The position numbers and the translations under genes are program-made. DNA of 64,000 nt, taken from positions 274,902-338,901 of the forward strand of contig CACMVA010000001.1 in the NCBI GenBank assembly GCA_902617045.1. Direction: 5' to 3'. Shown here in pieces: positions 145 through 13,937 of the stretch. The DNA is from an uncultured SAR86 cluster bacterium (GTDB lineage Bacteria > Pseudomonadota > Gammaproteobacteria > Magnimaribacterales > D2472). Below the pieces are notes generated by a model. The model was not told where the DNA came from, did not search any database, and saw only the letters and a program-made list of their open reading frames with translations. How positions within the stretch are numbered: position 1 is the first letter of the stretch; each line of letters starts with the position of its first letter.

Positions 145-984
145 TTATTTTTTTATCTTTGCAATAATATTATCAAGCTCATCAAGGCTTTTATAAAAAA
201 TAGATACTTTTCCAGATTTTTTATTCTTGGTTTCTATTTCAACCTTATGTCCAAATGATTCTGACATCTCTTGTTCTACATTCAACATATCGGTATCTTT
301 TTGTTTGGATTTTGGTGAATTTTTAGATTTGTTTTTTAAAGAAACATTGCTGAGATCCTTTACGGTCAATCTTTCTTTAATTATTTTTCTTGCCATTTTT
401 TCCGCATCAGAGGGTGGCATTGATGCTAAAAGTTTTGCATGTCCCTTTTCAATTTTTCCTTCTGAAAGCAAATCAAGAACCGTTGTTGGCAAAGATAATA
501 TTCTAAGTGAGTTGGCTATTGTGCTTCTTGCCTTGCCTGTTGAGGTCGCCACTTCGTCTTGAGTAAGTCCAAACTCTCTTTTTAGTCTATCAAGACCTCT
601 TGCCTCTTCAACAGGATTAAGATCTTCTCTTTGAAGATTCTCTATAAGGGCGGACACAAGAGCGTCTTGGTCTTTTTTTTGATCTACTAAACAAGGTATC
701 GTTTCTAGTCCCGCCATTTTTGATGATCTTAACCTTCTCTCACCAGCAATAACCTCATACTCATTAAGACCAAGCTCTCTTACTAAAATGGGAGAAAGAA
801 CTCCTTGTTTTTTTATCGATTCAGTTAATTCCTGAAGCTTTTCATTATCAAAGTTTGATCTTGGTTGAAACCTACCCGGCTTAATTTTTGATATTTCTAT
901 TTCTTTTACAGATCTTTGATTGGTATTAGATTGTCCCAAAAGCGCATCTAGTCCCTTGTTGAGTGTTTTATTTTCTTCAGACAT
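145..984 (-). CDS. parB: Chromosome partitioning protein ParB (Spo0J family)
   Basis: 279-aa ORF with ParB-box motif VIAGERRLRS and an HTH region. Its start overlaps the parA stop by 8 nt (ATGTCTGA). Confidence 0.9.
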   Translation of the reverse strand: MSEENKTLNKGLDALLGQSNTNQRSVKEIEISKIKPGRFQPRSNFDNEKLQELTESIKKQGVLSPILVRELGLNEYEVIAGERRLRSSKMAGLETIPCLVDQKKDQDALVSALIENLQREDLNPVEEARGLDRLKREFGLTQDEVATSTGKARSTIANSLRILSLPTTVLDLLSEGKIEKGHAKLLASMPPSDAEKMARKIIKERLTVKDLSNVSLKNKSKNSPKSKQKDTDMLNVEQEMSESFGHKVEIETKNKKSGKVSIFYKSLDELDNIIAKIKK

Positions 985-1738
985 ACTCCACCTTTCTAAT
1001 AAGCTCTCCTGCTAGCGCCAAATATGCTCTTGCTCCATAAGAATCTGGTTTATATTTTATACCAGATATTCCATGGCTTGGAGCCTCGGCCAGTTTTACA
1101 TTTCTGGGAATAAGGGTATTAAATACCAAACTTTCAAAGTGTTTTTCAAGCTCATCAGAAACCTCTTTTGCAAGGTTATTTCTCATATCAACCATTGTTC
1201 TTACTATCCCAAGGATCCTGTTTGATGACATGTTTTTGTTTGATATTGTTTCAATCGTATTCATGAGTCCTGTCACTCCCTCGAGTGAATAATATTCGCA
1301 CTGAAGTGGGATAAGTGTTCCAGAGGCACAAAACAAACCCTCGATGGTGAGTTGGTTTAGGGTCGGAGGTGTATCAATAATTGTATAGTCATAGTTTTGA
1401 GAAATTGGTTCTAGGCTTTTAGACATGAAGCCCTGCTTGTTATCATTTCTTATTGCTATTTCAAGGGCAATGAGCTCCTCTCCTCCGGGTATAATTTTAT
1501 AACCGTCGCTACTTTCATAAACACAGTCTTCTATTGAAGTGTTTTCAAAGTAGTGGTCGTAAAGGTTTGTGGTTGCGTTTTCCTTAATACCTGCAGCGGT
1601 TGTGGCATTCCCTTGTGGGTCTAGGTCTATTAATAATACTTTTCTTTTGGTTGCGGCCAGGCTTGCGGCGAGGTTAACTGCTGTTGTTGTTTTGCCAACC
1701 CCTCCTTTTTGGTTCGCAATTGCAATTACTTTATTCAT
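977..1738 (-). CDS. parA: Chromosome partitioning ATPase ParA/Soj
   Basis: 253-aa ORF with deviant Walker A NQKGGVGKTTT. Sits in the canonical rsmG-parA-parB order. Confidence 0.9.
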   Translation of the reverse strand: MNKVIAIANQKGGVGKTTTAVNLAASLAATKRKVLLIDLDPQGNATTAAGIKENATTNLYDHYFENTSIEDCVYESSDGYKIIPGGEELIALEIAIRNDNKQGFMSKSLEPISQNYDYTIIDTPPTLNQLTIEGLFCASGTLIPLQCEYYSLEGVTGLMNTIETISNKNMSSNRILGIVRTMVDMRNNLAKEVSDELEKHFESLVFNTLIPRNVKLAEAPSHGISGIKYKPDSYGARAYLALAGELIRKVEYV

Positions 1739-2318
1739 CTTTGCATAATAAAACTATGTTTCTTTCTTTTGTTGTGTCTTGATTGATTATTTCATATCTG
1801 AACATATTTTTGTCGATATCTTTTAACTCCTTTTTTATGTTTGATGCTTTTCCTTTAAGTAAAAGGTATTTTGTGTTTTTGTGGACGTTTGTTTCTGTGA
1901 GGTTTATTGTTTTTTCAATAGTGGCAAAAGCTCTTGAGGTAATGATGTCAAACTTGCCTAGCTCATTTTTTTTGATGATTGTTTTGTTAATTATTTTTGT
2001 GTTCTTTAGGTTCAGCTCGTGGGATACTTTTTTTAGAAAATAGCACTTCTTGTTGTTGCTCTCTAAAAGGTTTATTTTGTTTTCTGGTTTTGTTATTGAT
2101 AATAGTATTCCTGGAAAGCCCCCTCCCGAACCAAGGTCTAATACGCTTTCATTTTTTTTTATATGGTTGATTAGTGGCTTGCAGTCTAAAATATCGTTCT
2201 CATATACCTCGTTATAGGATTCTCTTGAAAAAATGTTGTGGGTTTTGTTGAAGTCTAGAGCAAGGTTTATAAATGTTTTTATTTTGTTTTCTTGTTCGTC
2301 TGTAAAGACTTTAGGCAT
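1731..2318 (-). CDS. rsmG: 16S rRNA (guanine527-N7)-methyltransferase RsmG (GidB)
   Basis: 195-aa ORF with SAM-binding motif [11 protein letters not shown]. Immediately downstream of mnmG. Confidence 0.85.
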
Positions 2319-4155
2319 GTTGTTTTAAAATTTCTTTTTTCTTTATTTGAATCAATATAAGGTTTACTGCTGCTGGTGTTACGCCTTCAATTTTTGATGC
2401 GCTCCCTATTGTTTCCGGTTTGTGTTTAATAAGTTTTTCTTTAACCTCGTTGGAGAGTCCGGGTATGTTGTTGTATTTAAGGTCTTGTGGGATTTTTTTG
2501 TTGTTTTGTTTTTGTGTTTTTTTAATTTCTCTTTTTTGTTTTTCAACATAGCCCATGTATTTTGATTCGGTTGCGGCTCTTTTATAAAGGTTTCTGTGTT
2601 TCTTTTTTGGTTTAAAAATTTTTGTTATATCAATATCTGTTCTCTTTAAAAGCTCAAAGACATTTTTGCTTTCGTTTAGTTTTAGTGTTTTGTTTTTTCT
2701 GTCTATGATTTTTGTTGTTTTGATTTTTTTTATTGTTTCTAGGAATTCTTTATATTCCATTTCTTTGGTTGTGAAACTGTTTTCTCTTTTAGCATCTACA
2801 AGCCCAGCATCAAACGCTTTAATTAAAAGTCTTTGTTCTGCGTTGTTTTGAGAAAGCATAAGCCTGTGTTCTGCTCTGCTTGTAAACATTCTGTAAGGCT
2901 CTGTAATTCCGTGTGTTGTTAGATCATCTATTAAAACTCCTATATATGCTTCGCTTCTTTTTAAAACCATGGGTTGTTTTTTTTGAATTGATCTCACGGC
3001 ATTGAGGCCGGCTATTAACCCCTGGGCGGCTGCTTCTTCGTATCCCGTTGTTCCGTTTATTTGTCCCGCTAAATAAAAGTTGTTAAGGAACTTTGTTTCT
3101 AGTGATGTTTTTAGGTTTCTTGGATCTACAAAATCATACTCTACAGCATAACCAAACTCAGTTATGATCGCCTCTTCGAGACCTTTAATTGAGCGTATAA
3201 AATCTTCTTGTGCTCTTCTGGGCAGGCTTGTTGATATTCCATTGGGATATATTAGATCTTTGTTTATGCCTTCGGGTTCAATAAATATTTGGTGGCTTTC
3301 TTTGTCACTAAACCTATTTACCTTGTCCTCGATTGATGGACAATACCTGGGCCCTATTCCCACAATATCTCCTGAATACATGGCTGACAAATGGGTGTTT
3401 TCTTTTATTATTTCATGGGTTTTTTTGTTGGTTCTTGTTATAAAGCATGAGAGTTGTTTTTGATGTTTTTTTGGTCTGTTGTATAGGGACATCCATGGTG
3501 TAGGTTTTTCACCGGGCTGCTCTTCCATACAGGATGTTGAAATACTTGAAAGCTTTATCCTAGCAGGGGTTCCTGTTTTCAATCTTCCCATGGGTAGTTT
3601 TAGTGAATAAAGTCTTTCAGATAGCGGTATCGCCGTTCCATCACCCATTCTTCCACCTTTGGTTACTTCATTTCCTACATACATCTTTCCGTTTAAAAAT
3701 GTGCCTGTGGTTAAGATGATTCTCTTTGCTAATATGTTTTGGTTGCTTGTTATTACCCCGGTTGCTTTATTGTTTTTAATTAAAATGTCTTCAACTTCAT
3801 CTTCGTATACATCAATATTTGTTTTTTTTAGTATTTTTTGAACTGCTTTTTTGTAAAGATCTCTATCACACTGAACCCTTAAAGCCTGAACCGCATCTCC
3901 TTTTCTTGTGTTAAGTGTTCTATATTGGATACCTGACATATCAGTGGCTGTTGGCATCAAGCCACCCATAGCATCAATCTCTCTGACTATATGTGATTTA
4001 CCTAAACCTCCGATTGCGGGATTACAAGACATCTGACCTATAGCTTTTTTATTAAAGGTGACAAGTGCGCATGACATACCTAATCTGTGGACAGCATATG
4101 CTGCCTCAACCCCGGCATGACCACCTCCAACAACTATAACATCGTATTTATTCAT
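2311..4155 (-). CDS. mnmG: tRNA uridine 5-carboxymethylaminomethyl modification enzyme MnmG (GidA)
   Basis: 614-aa ORF with N-terminal FAD fold [14 protein letters not shown]. Family-typical length and C-terminal domain. Confidence 0.95.
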
Positions 4156-4371
4156 TTCATTAATAATTAAACTTTAATATCTATATTATATACTTTTTGT
4201 TATTTCTATTATGTTGCTTGTTTTCTGTTAAAAACTCCTACAAACCCTTTCTTTATATAAGGCTGTTTAATTTATAAAAACGGTTAAGCTTTGTTTAGAA
4301 ACAGGTAAAAAATACTGAACAAGTTGTTAACAAAAAAAACAATACAAAATTATTAACAAATAAATAACAAC

Positions 4372-5685
4372 CTATTTACCAATACAATAACTACTAAATA
4401 TATCTCCCAATAATGAATCTGAAAATTTTTCACCAACAAGCTCATCAAGACATGACCTTGCTAACCTAAGGTCCTCAGCTACCAAATCCAAAGATAAATT
4501 CTCTTTTAAACCTTTTTGAGCAGAGATTAAGTTTTTAATAACATCCTGAAACAACTTATTATGCCTATCTCTTACCATAAATTTATAATCATCTTTTTTA
4601 ACACCCTTATTAAAAGAAGATAAAATTAATTTTTTTAGATCATCAAAACCATCACCGGTTTTAGCCGAAACACAACAATCAAAATATTTATAGTTCTTTT
4701 TATTAACATCAGTTTTATTTTGAACAGATATGAATGATGTATTCTTTGCTAAATCCTTAAAATTTTTGATTAAAGTTTTATCAAATAAATCAAAAATCCC
4801 TATTACTAAATCCGCACTTTTGATTTGTGACAAAGACAAATCAATACCCGCACCCTCAATCTTGTTATCAGTTTCTCTTATACCAGCAGAGTCTTGTATG
4901 GAAAATACACTAGACTCGTAAAAAAGCTCACTGCTGATAATATCTCTAGTTGTTCCAGGAGTGTTTGAGACAATAGCCCTTTCAAAACCCAGAAGCCTAT
5001 TAAACACAGAAGACTTGCCTGAGTTAACAGGACCAATCAAAAGAACATTATTTTTTTGAGAAAACATATTTTTATTAACACAACCAGATATAAAAGAGTT
5101 AAACCTATTTACAAGGTTGACCAAAGCATCAACCAACCCCTCATCCATATACTCATTACCCTCATCAGAAAAATCAATTTCAGCCTCTACCCGTACCCTA
5201 ATTTGATCAATTTCATCCGCAAAAGAAGAAATATTTGAAGACAAACCACCAAACAAAGAACTACCAGACAACACAGCCTCTTTATCATCTGTAGCATCAA
5301 TAAAATCAACCAAAGCCTCGGCCTCATTCAAACTCATTTTATTATTCAAAAAAGCACGTTTGGTAAACTCACCCCCAGCAGCCTCATCAAAACCAACACC
5401 CTTAAACAAAGCAACAAAAGAAGACATTACAGCAAGGCTTCCGTGTGCATAAACCTCAAAAGAATCCTCACCCGTATAACTATTTGGACCTTTAAAAACC
5501 AACAAACCAGCCTTATCAACCAACCGATCACCGTTATAAAAACCCCTGACATGAAAGCGGCCCGGCTCAAAACCTTTGTTTTTAATAATTTTTGATAGTC
5601 CCACAAGACACCCTTCACCCGAAACCCTAAATATACAAATTGCTGACTTGGCAGGCGGCGTTGCTAGCGCAAAAACAGGATGCAT
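4372..5685 (-). CDS. mnmE: tRNA modification GTPase MnmE (TrmE)
   Basis: 437-aa ORF with G1 motif GPVNSGKSS and the characteristic C-terminal CIGK. Confidence 0.95.
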   Translation of the reverse strand: MHPVFALATPPAKSAICIFRVSGEGCLVGLSKIIKNKGFEPGRFHVRGFYNGDRLVDKAGLLVFKGPNSYTGEDSFEVYAHGSLAVMSSFVALFKGVGFDEAAGGEFTKRAFLNNKMSLNEAEALVDFIDATDDKEAVLSGSSLFGGLSSNISSFADEIDQIRVRVEAEIDFSDEGNEYMDEGLVDALVNLVNRFNSFISGCVNKNMFSQKNNVLLIGPVNSGKSSVFNRLLGFERAIVSNTPGTTRDIISSELFYESSVFSIQDSAGIRETDNKIEGAGIDLSLSQIKSADLVIGIFDLFDKTLIKNFKDLAKNTSFISVQNKTDVNKKNYKYFDCCVSAKTGDGFDDLKKLILSSFNKGVKKDDYKFMVRDRHNKLFQDVIKNLISAQKGLKENLSLDLVAEDLRLARSCLDELVGEKFSDSLLGDIFSSYCIGK

Positions 5686-5687
5686 AG

Positions 5688-7214
5688 TTAGTCTGTATTA
5701 AGGGCGCCTTGCTGTTTGTAAAGATAGCTTTGTTGCCCAAGCTGAACACCAGTATTTACAACAGTATATAAACAAAGAGCAGCAGGGAAAAACAAAAAGA
5801 ACACCGAAAACATTACAGGCATATACTTCATAACCTGTGCTTGGGTTGGGTCCATACCAGCGGGTTGAGGATTAAGCCTTTGTGTCAATATCATAAGCAA
5901 ACCAAAAGCTGCAGGTAAAACAAAATATGGATCTGGAGCAGAGAGGTCTGTCCAAAAACCCAACGAACTATACCTTAGCTCAACCATCTCTCTTAGAGCA
6001 AAAAAGAAGCCAATAAAAAACGGCATCTGAATAAACAACGGCAAACAGCCCCCAAGAGGATTTGCCCCATGTTTTTTCATAAGTTTCATTGTTTCAGTTC
6101 CAGCTGTCTGGCGATCGTTCTTGTACCTTTCTTTTATCTCATTAAGCTCCGGGGTGATTTTTCTCAGTGCAGCCATCGACTTAAAGCTTTTGGCTGTTAC
6201 AGGCCAAAACAATAATTTAATTAATATAGTAAATATAATTATTGTTAAACCCCAGCTATTAACATAACCATTGATAAAATCCATTACAAACACCATGGGT
6301 TGTGCTAAAAACCAAAACCAGCCCATATCAATTGCTAGCTCTAAATTATTAGCTCTTTCCATGAGATCTTTTCTAATTTTTGGCCCAATAAACAACCTAT
6401 GCTCATGACCATAAACCAGGTTGCTTGTTGAGGATCCCTCTACCGTATAACCCATTCTGTATAACCCAGACTCCTTTGGTAGAACGTAATAATTATAAAT
6501 ATATTCATCTGACCCAATAATGGCCGCAAAAAAATATTTTTGAACAAAAGCAACCCAACCAGACTTTGACAAAACCTCAAGGGGCTCATCAACCGACCTT
6601 AATCTCGATGTAGAATAAGGGTCAAGTTCTGTGCTTATCGCAACGCCCTCATAAGAGCTGTTGTTCATCATTCCACCCTCAAGAGCGCCTCTTTTTAAAT
6701 CAAGGGCCCTTCCTTCAGAACGATACAAACCCGCAAACGACTTTCCATTAACCCCATTAGCCGATGAATCATAAACACTTACTTCGTAACTAGCATTAGA
6801 AAAAGATATTTTCTTAGATACACCAAGCTCTGGATCTAACAAAACCACATAATCATCACCTCTCTCTGAAACCTCATAAACCGGGGTGACTCCGGTAAAC
6901 CCACTCTTAAAATAATATTGAAACGCAGAAGACTTGGAAGACCCAAAAACCCTAAACCCACTAGAACCACTCACATTTTCAACGGGATATTTTTTTAACC
7001 TCGCCTCAACAATAGAACCATTAGATATTGAAATAACCAACGAAAGCTCATCGTTTTCAATTGAAACAAACCTACCATCACCCCCATAAGATGACGACCC
7101 AACCATATCAAGGTGCTGTTTAATTGATTTAGTTTTTTGTTCTGAGTTCCATTCATACAACAATGCTAAAGAAAGAAAAACAATCAGAGCCAAATACAAA
7201 CTTCTTATATTCAT
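5688..7214 (-). CDS. yidC: Membrane protein insertase YidC
   Basis: 508-aa ORF with an N-terminal TM, a large periplasmic domain and a conserved C-terminal 5-TM core. Sits in the rnpA-yidC-mnmE order. Confidence 0.9.
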   Translation of the reverse strand: MNIRSLYLALIVFLSLALLYEWNSEQKTKSIKQHLDMVGSSSYGGDGRFVSIENDELSLVISISNGSIVEARLKKYPVENVSGSSGFRVFGSSKSSAFQYYFKSGFTGVTPVYEVSERGDDYVVLLDPELGVSKKISFSNASYEVSVYDSSANGVNGKSFAGLYRSEGRALDLKRGALEGGMMNNSSYEGVAISTELDPYSTSRLRSVDEPLEVLSKSGWVAFVQKYFFAAIIGSDEYIYNYYVLPKESGLYRMGYTVEGSSTSNLVYGHEHRLFIGPKIRKDLMERANNLELAIDMGWFWFLAQPMVFVMDFINGYVNSWGLTIIIFTILIKLLFWPVTAKSFKSMAALRKITPELNEIKERYKNDRQTAGTETMKLMKKHGANPLGGCLPLFIQMPFFIGFFFALREMVELRYSSLGFWTDLSAPDPYFVLPAAFGLLMILTQRLNPQPAGMDPTQAQVMKYMPVMFSVFFLFFPAALCLYTVVNTGVQLGQQSYLYKQQGALNTD

Positions 7215-7525
7215 TTTTTATCCATACTATCAGCAATAGATCTCGCAGCTGAAGAGATCTCTATCATCGCCTCTTTATATGATAACTCTCCAAAAGGCCT
7301 AAATACAGAAAAAACCAAAATTCCGTCTGGCATATCTATTGATAATTTTCTAAAAATTTCTTTTATCCTTCTTTTTATTTTATTCCTTTCGACCGCAAGC
7401 CTAAAAAACTTTTTCGAGATTGATATTTCAAGCCCATTATTTTTTGATTGCTTATAAAATATTCTAAAAAACTTACAGGAATATAAACACTCAAGCGAGG
7501 CAAACTGTTGATTGGAATTGGACAA
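7211..7525 (-). CDS. rnpA: RNase P protein component RnpA (start uncertain; longest ORF extends to 7615)
   Basis: Carries the RNR motif AVERNKIKRRIKE. The longest ORF overlaps rpmH by 89 nt. A TTG at 7525, 1 nt after the rpmH stop, gives a 104-aa product that aligns with the conserved part of RnpA. Confidence 0.75.
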   Translation of the reverse strand: MSNSNQQFASLECLYSCKFFRIFYKQSKNNGLEISISKKFFRLAVERNKIKRRIKEIFRKLSIDMPDGILVFSVFRPFGELSYKEAMIEISSAARSIADSMDKK

Positions 7526-7526
7526 A

Positions 7527-7661
7527 TTAAGCGCTAAGAACCTTTCTACCCTTTTTTCTTCTGTTGGATAAAACAGCTCTTCCAGCCTTGGTTGACATTC
7601 TCGCTCGAAAACCATGGGTTCTTTTTCTTTTTAAGTTACTTGGTTGAAAAGTTCTCTTCAT
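7527..7661 (-). CDS. rpmH: 50S ribosomal protein L34
   Basis: Not in the ORF track (44 aa). Hand translation gives [44 protein letters not shown], a textbook L34 sequence, upstream of rnpA. Confidence 0.92.
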
Positions 7662-7754
7662 AATATCTAATGCTAAAAGTGTTGAGGATTATAGCGCAAT
7701 AAGTTTTTAAAACCACAAAAATTGCTGCAAAACATAATTTTTTTTATATACAAG

Positions 7755-7763
7755 TTATCCACA
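7755..7763 (+). promoter_or_regulatory. DnaA box, perfect consensus TTATCCACA
   Basis: Exact 9-mer TTATCCACA, 75 nt upstream of the dnaA start. Confidence 0.65.
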
Positions 7764-7783
7764 ACAAATTCCTATATTTATTC

Positions 7784-7803
7784 TGTAGATATCTTGTGGA
7801 TTT
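7784..7803 (-). promoter_or_regulatory. Two degenerate DnaA-box-like 9-mers (TGTAGATAT, TGTGGATTT), 11 bp apart
   Basis: TGTGGATTT is the reverse complement of AAATCCACA (2 mismatches). TGTAGATAT has 2 mismatches to TGTGNATAA. The two are spaced one helical turn apart. Confidence 0.35.
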
Positions 7804-7837
7804 TTTAATAGACTATGAATCAAATAGGAGATAATAA

Positions 7838-9130
7838 TTGGAACTTTGGAATAAGTGTTCTGAAAAGCTTGAAAATACCCTTTCTCAAGAAGATTTCAAC
7901 ACCTGGATCAGGCCTCTAAAGGCAAAAATAGATAAAAATACCCTGGAGCTTGTCGCACCTAACGACTTTATTTTAGATTACATAGAAAAAAACTATTCCA
8001 AAGAGATCAAAAAAATTGTCAAAGCACAGTCAAAGTCAAACATAAATCTTGTATTTAAAACCCTCACAAAAGAAACTTTTATTGATAAATATAAAAACAA
8101 CCAAAACTCAGAAATAAAACTAGTTGACGGATATACTTTTGATAGCTTTGTTGAGGGAAAGTCAAATCACCTTGCTTTAGCTGCAGCCAAACAAGTCGCA
8201 GCTAACCCAAAAGGTGACTATAACCCGCTTTTTATTTATGGTGGGGTTGGTTTGGGTAAAACACACCTAATGCATGCTGTTGGTAATGAGATTTTAAAAA
8301 ACGAACCAAAAAAAAGGATTGTTTATGTTCATTCAGAGAAATTTGTGTCTGATATGGTGAAGGCGCTTCAATTGGGCGCAATGAATGAGTTTAAATCATT
8401 TTATAGAAACGCCGACGCTCTTTTGATTGACGACATTCAGTTTTTTGCTGGTAAGGAGCAGTCTCAAGAGGAGTTTTTTCATACTTTTAATGCTTTGTTG
8501 GATAGAAACAATCAAATGATATTAACATGTGATAAATATCCAAAAGAGATTGATGGCTTGGAAGAAAGGCTAAAATCAAGACTTGGCTGGGGCCTGCCTG
8601 TTGTTATCGACCCACCTGAACTCGAAACAAGAGCAGCGGTTTTACTTAGCAAGGCAAACTCAATGGGTATTTCTCTTCCTAACGATTGTGCAATATACAT
8701 CGCCCAAAGAATAAGATCTAACATCAGGGAGCTTGAGGGAGCATTAAAGAGAGTTGTTGCAAACGCTAGATTTACAAATCAAGAAGTTGACCTTGCTCTT
8801 GTGAAAGATGCGCTAAAAGATCTTTTTGTAATCTCCGCAAAAATGATAAGCGTAGAGAACATACAAAAAACAGTTGCAGAATACTACAACATTAAACTTT
8901 CAGACCTTCTTTCAAAAAGAAGAAGCAGATCGATAACAAGACCAAGACAAATGGCAATGGCATTAACAAAAGAACTAACAAACCACAGCCTTCCAGAAAT
9001 TGGAGAAGCATATAATGGAAGAGATCATACAACCGTTCTCCATGCTTGTAAAAAAATCAAAGAATTAAGAAAGGAAAGTCCCTCACACGAAGAGGACTAC
9101 AGAAATTTAAATAGGGCCCTTACCAACTAA
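7838..9130 (+). CDS. dnaA: Chromosomal replication initiator DnaA
   Basis: 430-aa ORF with a TTG start preceded by AGGAG. Walker [11 protein letters not shown] and a C-terminal DnaA-box-binding domain. Confidence 0.95.

Positions 9131-10235: not shown

Positions 10236-13937
<3,702 letters not shown>

Follow-up and report, generated by a model that had tools for sequence, protein, structure and literature searches.

Mirror-image strand asymmetry blocks flank a point inside mnmG in the origin-region gene cluster of SAR86 bacteria

Introduction

Compositional skew between the two DNA strands is normally a chromosome-scale property, and it is used to find replication origins. In strongly skewed genomes, such as those of Borrelia, the skew biases the amino-acid composition of the proteins. 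In the strand-coordinated mutation clusters that flank double-strand breaks, and in the exposure gradients of vertebrate mitochondria, the polarity of the changes switches at a point and follows the strand that is single-stranded, and A>G changes of the purine-deamination type track the exposure of mitochondrial DNA (mtDNA). In mismatch-repair-defective Escherichia coli and Pseudomonas aeruginosa, A:T>G:C changes have been found to be 2.4 times more frequent when the A is on the lagging-strand template (bioRxiv 10.1101/346874). Here we analyze a 64,000-nt stretch of DNA, hereafter called the window, from a member of the SAR86 cluster, which belongs to the marine Gammaproteobacteria, is globally abundant and has a G+C content of about 32%. 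Instead of a chromosome-scale skew, this stretch shows a strong mirror pair of kilobase-scale blocks of opposite strand asymmetry, and the point at which the asymmetry changes sign lies inside the mnmG gene.

Pfam matches and open reading frame (ORF) calls identify the window as containing the SAR86 origin-region gene cluster. The window was compared with 11 SAR86 relatives (L001-L011) and with 54 other loci, including that of E. coli and the loci L014 and L067, which, among the non-SAR86 loci that share the gene order, are the nearest. The relatives are single-cell genomes and metagenome-assembled genomes, one of them being a complete 1.30-Mb chromosome obtained from long reads, and their mnmG orthologues are 97-70% identical. 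As statistic we used the plus-strand third-position difference (G+T)-(A+C) per 100 codons, calculated in scanning windows; keto skew denotes the same contrast.

Results

Two blocks of opposite third-position skew meet inside mnmG

The left wing of the pattern (block A, 1300-3850) comprises the 5' half of parA (977-1738), rsmG (1731-2318) and the part of mnmG (2311-4155; 614 aa) beyond codon 100, all of which are encoded on the minus strand. Here the plus strand is poor in A and rich in G and T, and the statistic takes values of +30 to +58 per 100 codons over about 1340-3880. The right wing (block B, 4100-7250) comprises the first mnmG codons, the 216-nt spacer between mnmG and mnmE (4156-4371), mnmE (4372-5685; 437 aa) and yidC (5688-7214), the last two genes also being encoded on the minus strand. 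In this wing it is the minus, coding strand that is A-poor and G+T-rich, the plus strand being A+C-rich, and between about 4400 and 7250 the statistic lies at -22 to -66, with the exception of a single scanning window of -12 in yidC. The two wings are separated by a flip zone (3850-4100) in the first ~100 codons of mnmG, where the cumulative plus-strand keto skew reaches its peak. Beyond 9.3 kb, the 345 scanning windows have a mean of -0.4 and a standard deviation of 11.2 (binomial expectation, 10), and range from -34 to +28. Compared with the other minus-strand genes, the keto and amino counts differ with chi-square p values of 2e-35 for block A and 4e-20 for block B.

When the third-position keto skew was pooled over four lineages, block A reached about +0.2 to +0.5 and block B about -0.3 to -0.55. 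The pooled profile is plateau-like, at about +0.35 and -0.35, with equally strong wings, and its sign change is complete within ~450 nt around 3900. The skew rises over 1200-1750; at the other end the A/T component stops sharply at ~7250, while the G/C component runs on to ~8100. The pattern is tied to DNA position and not to genes: its borders lie inside parA and mnmG. The bias also runs on through the non-coding mnmG-mnmE spacer.

A preliminary description of this DNA, based on hand tallies, had claimed opposite synonymous biases on one coding strand, and the comparison of the windowed third-position statistic with the rest of the window bears this out. Its counts of the Asn codons AAC and AAT were recovered within one or two counts for rsmG (19:4), mnmG (25:10) and parA (12:7), and they also hold for parB (4:12), mnmE (9:19), recF (8:24) and gyrB (9:18). 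For polA the excess of AAT is real, although the recount gave 18:36 instead of about 14:26. Of the 10 AAT codons correctly counted in mnmG, three and not five lie within the first 110 codons (four by codon 113). The GAG:GAA ratio of 18:6 in mnmE, where TTG makes up 19 of the 43 Leu codons, was reproduced, as were the contrasting values for gyrB (GAG:GAA 13:37; four TTG codons) and the bulk plus-strand counts (G237:C188 over 1741-3060 and G104:C228 over 4381-5400). The centre of the asymmetry needed correction, since it had been placed on the mnmG-mnmE spacer, and the flip is instead found at ~3850-3900, inside mnmG at codon 100. Similarly, the proposed boundary inside mnmG stands, but the outer limits are to be set at ~1300, in the middle of parA, and at ~7250, at the junction of yidC and rnpA. 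The plus strand is indeed enriched in A and C between ~3.85 and 8.2 kb, though not continuously, the enrichment being interrupted at 7300-7900.

One base-change rule describes both blocks

At four-fold sites, the coding strand in the rest of the window contains A, C, G and T in proportions of.41,.10,.07 and.42, respectively. The corresponding values are.51,.21,.08 and.20 in block A, and.22,.09,.15 and.54 in block B. In block A the main shift affects the pyrimidine-ending two-fold codons, in which the T fraction falls from.79 to.44, the coding (minus) strand having lost T to C and A. In block B it affects the purine-ending codons, in which the G fraction rises from.23 to.50. One rule covers both blocks: the strand that has its 3' end toward the flip loses A, about half of it to G and about half to T. 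In both wings, C is unchanged on the A-depleted strand and A residues beside another A are mostly spared, and the sequence contexts of the two wings are mirror images. What had first been described as a general A/C versus G/T codon style is therefore better described as the loss of A from one strand. Codon positions 1 and 2 are shifted likewise relative to the L014 and L067 orthologues, so that the amino-acid composition is altered; the position 1 skew, for example, is +0.24 in SAR86 mnmE versus -0.02 in these orthologues, and -0.23 versus -0.08 in rsmG.

Substitution rates were obtained as private third-position changes per site on the plus strand, polarised by majority rule within the window's own clade of ~95% identity. 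For A>G and T>C, respectively, they amount to 0.075 and 0.015 in block A, 0.035 and 0.066 in block B, 0.040 and 0.030 in the left flank, and 0.020 and 0.033 in the right flank. The per-site rate of A>G relative to T>C is thus 5.1 in block A and 0.53 in block B. At third positions, the blocks have diverged ~1.2-1.5 times as much as the flanks. In every region, the equilibrium composition computed from the current rates approximates the composition observed, which implies that the process is acting now. We conclude that a strand-asymmetric substitution bias acts at the DNA level, that it is still ongoing, and that it is tied to position, with its anchor at a point ~250 nt inside mnmG. As a description, the local strand-asymmetric mutational process proposed earlier is upheld by the single strand-symmetric rule, the fixed flip and the involvement of all codon positions.

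A strict singleton count in seven close genomes (the window and L001-L006) had suggested that recent changes erode the skew. We rejected this suggestion as an ascertainment artefact: the count is misleading because demanding that all other genomes be unchanged under-counts changes at fast-mutating rare bases, and the majority-rule rates match the composition. The same count gave a ratio of ~2:1 of AT>GC over GC>AT changes even in the flanks, which we also attribute to ascertainment and which calls for caution in analyses of this type.

The blocks are conserved across SAR86 and absent from other loci

Both blocks are present in all 11 SAR86 relatives, which represent five deep lineages. Between adjacent stretches of 500 codons on one coding strand, the third-position skew jumps by 0.58-0.87 in the 10 SAR86 sequences scored, the window included; L003, in which the mnmE reading frame is broken, and L011, whose contig ends inside mnmG, were not scored. 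In the 54 other loci, including E. coli, the same jump does not exceed 0.30, and L014 and L067 lack the blocks despite their identical gene order. The cumulative skew peaks at mnmG codon 100 in the window and in L001, at codon 95 in L007, at codon 76 in L010 and at codon 23 in L009, which places the flip 70-300 nt inside mnmG across lineages. Four-fold identity between the window and L009 or L010 is 0.37-0.42 for most genes, compared with 0.31-0.33 expected from composition. With four-fold sites so near saturation, an inherited pattern would have decayed.

The region is colinear and 92-98% identical in six independent single-cell assemblies, and its gene order is shared with the long-read chromosome. 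In L003, the mnmE reading frame (the equivalent of 4372-5685) is interrupted and no full-length ORF is present, probably owing to a sequencing or assembly error. In L004 and L005, the equivalent of ~5200-6200, which spans the 5' part of mnmE and the 3' part of yidC, is occupied by a common divergent tract of imported DNA, with 28-55 differences per 200 nt to the window, as against 5-18 for the other close genomes over this stretch. We read this tract as evidence for homologous recombination within block B.

Minor blocks and the rest of the window

Smaller asymmetries accompany the two main blocks. A minor positive block (200-650; +0.46, +0.19 and +0.21) lies at the 3' end of parB (145-984, minus strand), is followed by a neutral gap (700-1250), and is also found in L001, L003, L007, L009 and L010. 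Within dnaA (7838-9130, plus strand), a mosaic extends over 7900-9100, being negative at 7900-8140, positive at 8140-8620 and negative at 8700-9100. The nearer lineages retain this mosaic, L010 and L011 show it weakly, and L009 lacks it. The Leu codons of dnaA agree with the earlier tally: TTG accounts for one of 13 in the first 120 codons (this one being the start codon), six of 21 in the middle, and none of 14 in the last 120. The start codon at 7838 is apparently TTG (TTGGAACTTTGG...), and the TTGGA found there is kept in all aligned SAR86 lineages. On the minus strand at 8237-8315, an Rfam comparison gave its only match, a sub-threshold one to AsdA, an antisense RNA of dnaA mRNA (32.8 bits versus a gathering threshold of 52; E = 0.0017), which probably reflects conservation of the dnaA coding sequence and not a real antisense RNA. 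Finally, third-position G+C (GC3) is 0.26-0.36 per gene from parA to dnaA (977-9130), compared with 0.15-0.25 in most other genes of the window.

No replication-linked third-position skew was found over the 55 kb between 9.3 and 64 kb (+0.008 for GC3 and +0.017 for AT3, the A/T counterpart), where only a mild coding-strand component exists (GC3, +0.113). Among gammaproteobacteria, a stretch of 55 kb without replication skew is unusual. In the relatives, the left flanks are close to neutral. The four-fold composition of the cox operon, the S-adenosylhomocysteine (AdoHcy) hydrolase gene and the atp genes of the relatives, all presumably highly expressed, is near baseline.

Gene order and sequences around the flip

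To the right of yidC follow rnpA (7211-7615) and rpmH, both on the minus strand, the 176-nt rpmH-dnaA spacer (7662-7837), and dnaA with dnaN, recF and gyrB, all on the plus strand; to the left of parB, as seen in SAR86 relatives, lies the atp operon. The E. coli order (atp operon-rsmG-mnmG) is the same as that of SAR86 as far as mnmG, where E. coli has oriC, and the Pseudomonas order is the same as that of SAR86 throughout.

The mnmG-mnmE spacer is kept across SAR86, with a length of 211-224 nt and an A+T content of 73-81% (216 nt and 79% in the window), and together with the mnmG start it contains the 60-mers that are richest in A+T within the first 9.4 kb. A conserved block on its mnmG-proximal side can be read as a promoter, probably that of mnmG, in which TATAAT lies on the minus strand. 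The left half of the spacer carries repeated TGTT motifs and the right half repeated AACA motifs, among them the 10-bp palindrome TTGTTAACAA, and by visual reading four motif-bearing blocks are kept across SAR86. In L014 and L067, mnmG and mnmE are merely 12 nt apart; hence, the spacer found at the flip is new in SAR86 and occurs together with the paired blocks. These two loci differ from SAR86 in other spacers too. Their rpmH-dnaA spacer measures 283 nt and holds two perfect DnaA boxes, and a 184-nt spacer with a DnaA-box-like site separates dnaA from dnaN (L014, 17051-17234; L067, 17011-17195). SAR86 has lost the latter spacer, dnaA and dnaN abutting at 9130. In SAR86, the non-coding DNA around the origin has undergone remodelling.

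Several searches for sequence elements that might mark the blocks gave negative results. Neither in the blocks nor at their borders was a conserved synonymous-site element found; no oligomer was polar beyond mononucleotide composition, Chi-like octamers occurred at chance level, and promoter-like and terminator-like sites were as numerous as in shuffled sequences. A search for phage attachment sites found no match between the mnmE 3' end and viral contigs. A 14-nt repeat (TGGGATAAGTGTTC family) present at 1307, 3907 and 7847 was considered as a boundary mark and rejected as a chance occurrence, since its copies encode similar peptides and are not kept in L009 and L010. Unrelated to the blocks is a palindromic parS-like site, AGTTCCACGTGGAACA, at 11287-11302 on the junction of recF and gyrB, the sole such site in the 64 kb, whose 14-nt core is kept at the same place in L014 and in eight of the 11 SAR86 loci. 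The site differs by one mismatch from the Pseudomonas parS consensus, TGTTCCACGTGGAACA.

Discussion

The point of inversion and its possible origin

The results presented here raise the question of which process could act with opposite polarity on the two sides of a point inside mnmG. The explanation that we tentatively favor, with less than even confidence, is that the flip is a local footprint of replication initiation at the SAR86-specific, A+T-rich spacer upstream of mnmG. A single-strand DNA transaction would start recurrently at the flip, most likely the initiation of chromosome replication beside mnmG, and over the first few kb on either side the two template strands would be handled unequally. 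On the one hand, the leading-strand template might remain single-stranded until leading-strand synthesis catches up. On the other hand, the first lagging-strand DNA might be made without normal error correction. The outcome would be a local butterfly with a polarity opposite to that of ordinary leading-strand skew, and at greater distances no asymmetry would result from the normal replisome in this organism.

Several observations are in line with this explanation. Firstly, the proposed start beside mnmG is homologous in position to E. coli oriC, and the Vibrio oriC lies beside mnmG as well. Secondly, the spacer is lineage-specific, A+T-rich and coincident with the flip. Thirdly, the wings are equal although one of them would be co-directional and the other head-on with transcription, which argues for a process that is symmetric about a point.

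Other observations, however, weigh against an initiation footprint at the spacer. Scans of the window, the spacer and the relatives revealed no cluster of DnaA boxes (TTATNCACA) at the flip or in the spacer, where the window has no site with one mismatch or less, and the weak TTATTAACA/TTATCAACA sites number only one or two per lineage. The only perfect, conserved DnaA box is found at 7755-7763 in the rpmH-dnaA spacer, 3.6 kb from the mnmG-mnmE spacer. The rpmH-dnaA spacer, which also harbours the promoters of rpmH and dnaA and, at 7795-7803 on the minus strand, a second box-like site, corresponds to the position of the origin in Pseudomonas, with its identical gene order, and by synteny it is the conventional origin candidate. 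The polarity is a further difficulty: if forks diverge from the flip, it is the reverse of that around E. coli oriC, where the skew passes from negative on the left to positive on the right, SAR86 having positive values to the left of the flip and negative ones to the right. It is likewise opposite to the bias of mismatch-repair-defective strains, by whose rule forks would converge on the flip. Moreover, the profile is a plateau with fairly sharp limits and does not decay from the centre; the A-depleted strand shows no loss of C, contrary to what simple single-strand deamination would lead one to expect; and the small parB and dnaA blocks are left unaccounted for. The link to replication proposed in the preliminary description consequently fared less well than the mutational process itself, given the lack of a DnaA-box cluster in the spacer, the non-canonical polarity if forks diverge, and the absence of replication skew from the rest of the window. 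Models in which exposure falls off from the centre or from the outer ends were rejected, as such gradients misfit the plateau-like pooled profile.

Alternative explanations

The polarity that is difficult to reconcile with diverging forks would follow directly if the flip marked a recurrent double-strand break, or a start of recombination, near the spacer and the 5' end of mnmG, an explanation that we consider unlikely but worth weighing in full. Resection in the 5'-to-3' direction would leave 3' tails, formed by the plus strand on the left and the minus strand on the right, which would be damaged at A. Alternatively, in a heteroduplex with a polymorphic donor, A-C mismatches might be tolerated and G-T mismatches rejected, and G+T would be enriched either way. 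The geometry of such 3' tails fits the polarity exactly and the wings are equal. The rates in block A shift jointly, plus-strand A>G and C>T being raised and G>A and T>C lowered, as a fixation or conversion bias, or an exposure transferred between strands, would produce. GC3 is raised regionally, and recombination is active here, as the import into L004 and L005 indicates. RecA has a preference for single strands rich in G+T, and in other Gammaproteobacteria SGI1-type islands are known to integrate at the 3' end of trmE/mnmE. However, there is no independent reason for a break at this site, which shows neither an excess of Chi-like octamers nor a conserved boundary motif nor an attachment signal of an island or phage. 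In addition, C is not depleted on the putative single strand, and one of four rates, plus-strand C>T in block B, moves in the wrong direction for a pure fixation bias.

The square-wave-like shape of the domains and the existence of several small blocks could also be explained by convergent transcription, which we regard as improbable. In mammals, transcription is known to leave a signature of A>G and A>T changes on the non-transcribed strand. If the non-template strand gained such changes here, block B would result from sense transcription of yidC-mnmE and block A from dominant rightward antisense transcription of parA-rsmG-mnmG. The arrangement would reinforce itself if G+U-rich, C-poor RNA escapes Rho, and the small parB and dnaA blocks would be further antisense units. 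The mild general coding-strand excess of G (GC3, +0.113) is compatible with this, and so is the sub-threshold AsdA match, though the latter may merely reflect dnaA coding conservation. The genes presumed to be highly expressed are nevertheless near baseline, and expression level alone cannot give the composition of mnmE, with A at.20 and T at.61. The explanation also needs strong, conserved antisense RNA over three or four housekeeping genes without a conserved promoter, and two independent units that yield asymmetries of equal and opposite strength.

Slightly less probable still, in our opinion, is that the blocks result from converging synthesis, with a leftward fork from the rpmH-dnaA spacer copying block B and a rightward fork from a second start near parA/parB copying block A, the two meeting at ~3900. 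If errors in this stretch escaped correction, an uncorrected-replication-error spectrum would accumulate. The polarity would then agree both with canonical skew and with the error bias toward A on the lagging-strand template, and A:T>G:C changes dominate the error spectrum and the local excess alike. The flip lies near the midpoint of 1300 and 7250, the profile is square-wave-like, and a conserved DnaA box is available at 7755. Against this, no second origin-like sequence or DnaA box is found near 100-1300, the outward forks leave no skew over the 55 kb analyzed, and a failure of correction only between the two starts is unexplained.

Selection, be it on codon usage or on RNA or DNA composition, is in our view very unlikely to have produced the blocks. 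Such selection might, for example, adjust the translation of mnmE and mnmG, which are tRNA-modification genes, to the U34 modification that they themselves provide, or act on mRNA stability. SAR86 has a very large population, in which weak selection could act, and mnmE is rich in NNG codons that depend on modification by MnmEG. However, the borders of the blocks lie inside parA and mnmG and the pattern crosses a non-coding spacer; yidC and parA share the bias; the two blocks prefer opposite codons, which amounts to the same change on opposite DNA strands; all three codon positions are shifted; and substitution rates and divergence are raised instead of lowered.

The remaining possibilities, namely an assembly chimera, a recent recombination tract from a relative, and a relic of horizontal transfer or recombination from a strongly skewed donor, have in their favor the atypical local composition and the scattering of the best non-SAR86 matches of mnmG over assorted phyla at only 47-50% identity, but they are refuted by the identical blocks and boundaries in 11 independent SAR86 assemblies from five deep lineages, single-cell genomes and the long-read chromosome included, by the persistence of the blocks in lineages whose mnmG is 70-73% identical and whose synonymous sites are nearly saturated, by present-day rates that reproduce the composition, and by the canonical gene order.

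Implications

Returning to the initiation footprint, it is possible, though doubtful, that in SAR86 a single-strand transaction, perhaps replication, starts at a spacer without canonical DnaA boxes and leaves the inverted skew butterfly of ~3 kb per side as its mark. If the flip is the footprint of either initiation or a break, sequence data would suffice to learn at what site and in what manner a DNA transaction begins in organisms that resist cultivation, and a new, testable site would be predicted. Should replication indeed be initiated at the spacer, the chemistry of initiation would be readable from sequence alone. Other implications do not depend on the mechanism. The bias is strong enough to alter the amino-acid composition of MnmE, YidC, MnmG and RsmG. 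In genome annotation, locally aberrant codon usage in a core gene is not necessarily a sign of horizontal transfer or misassembly. In the search for origins, local blocks such as these can steer the standard cumulative-skew methods.

Comparison with known strand asymmetries

Canonical replication skew resembles the SAR86 pattern in being a silent-site asymmetry of G+T versus A+C that flips sign at a point in the origin cluster. The SAR86 blocks differ from it in that they extend over ~3 kb on each side and not over whole replichores, the rest of the window being free of replication skew. In addition, their polarity is opposite to that around E. coli oriC if the flip is the origin, and they are driven by the loss of A and not by C>T changes. 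Like the skew of Borrelia, they affect protein composition.

With an oriC of the E. coli or Vibrio type, the flip region shares its position relative to atp-rsmG-mnmG and an A+T-rich, conserved, non-coding spacer upstream of mnmG. The SAR86 spacer differs in lacking a cluster of DnaA boxes, GATC sites (by visual reading) and mioC, and the flip itself lies ~250 nt inside mnmG.

In mismatch-repair-defective E. coli and P. aeruginosa, A:T>G:C changes are dominant and strand-biased, as they are in the local excess of SAR86. SAR86, however, is a natural lineage in which the bias is local, A>T changes also contribute to the composition, and the E. coli rule would imply converging forks. Transcription-associated asymmetry would account for the coding-strand G+T enrichment of block B and for plateau-like domains, whereas the sign is reversed in block A, whose coding strand is the same, and presumably highly expressed genes of the window show almost none of it. 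The clusters that flank breaks are somatic and the gradients of mtDNA are genome-wide; the SAR86 blocks, in contrast, represent an evolutionary equilibrium over 6 kb, without a gradient and without loss of C.

In the literature we found no description of skew in SAR86, of a SAR86 origin, or of local skew inversions. Strand compositional asymmetry as such is well known; what sets the present case apart is its kilobase scale, its polarity, its specificity for A, its occurrence in an otherwise skew-free segment, and its link to a lineage-specific spacer.

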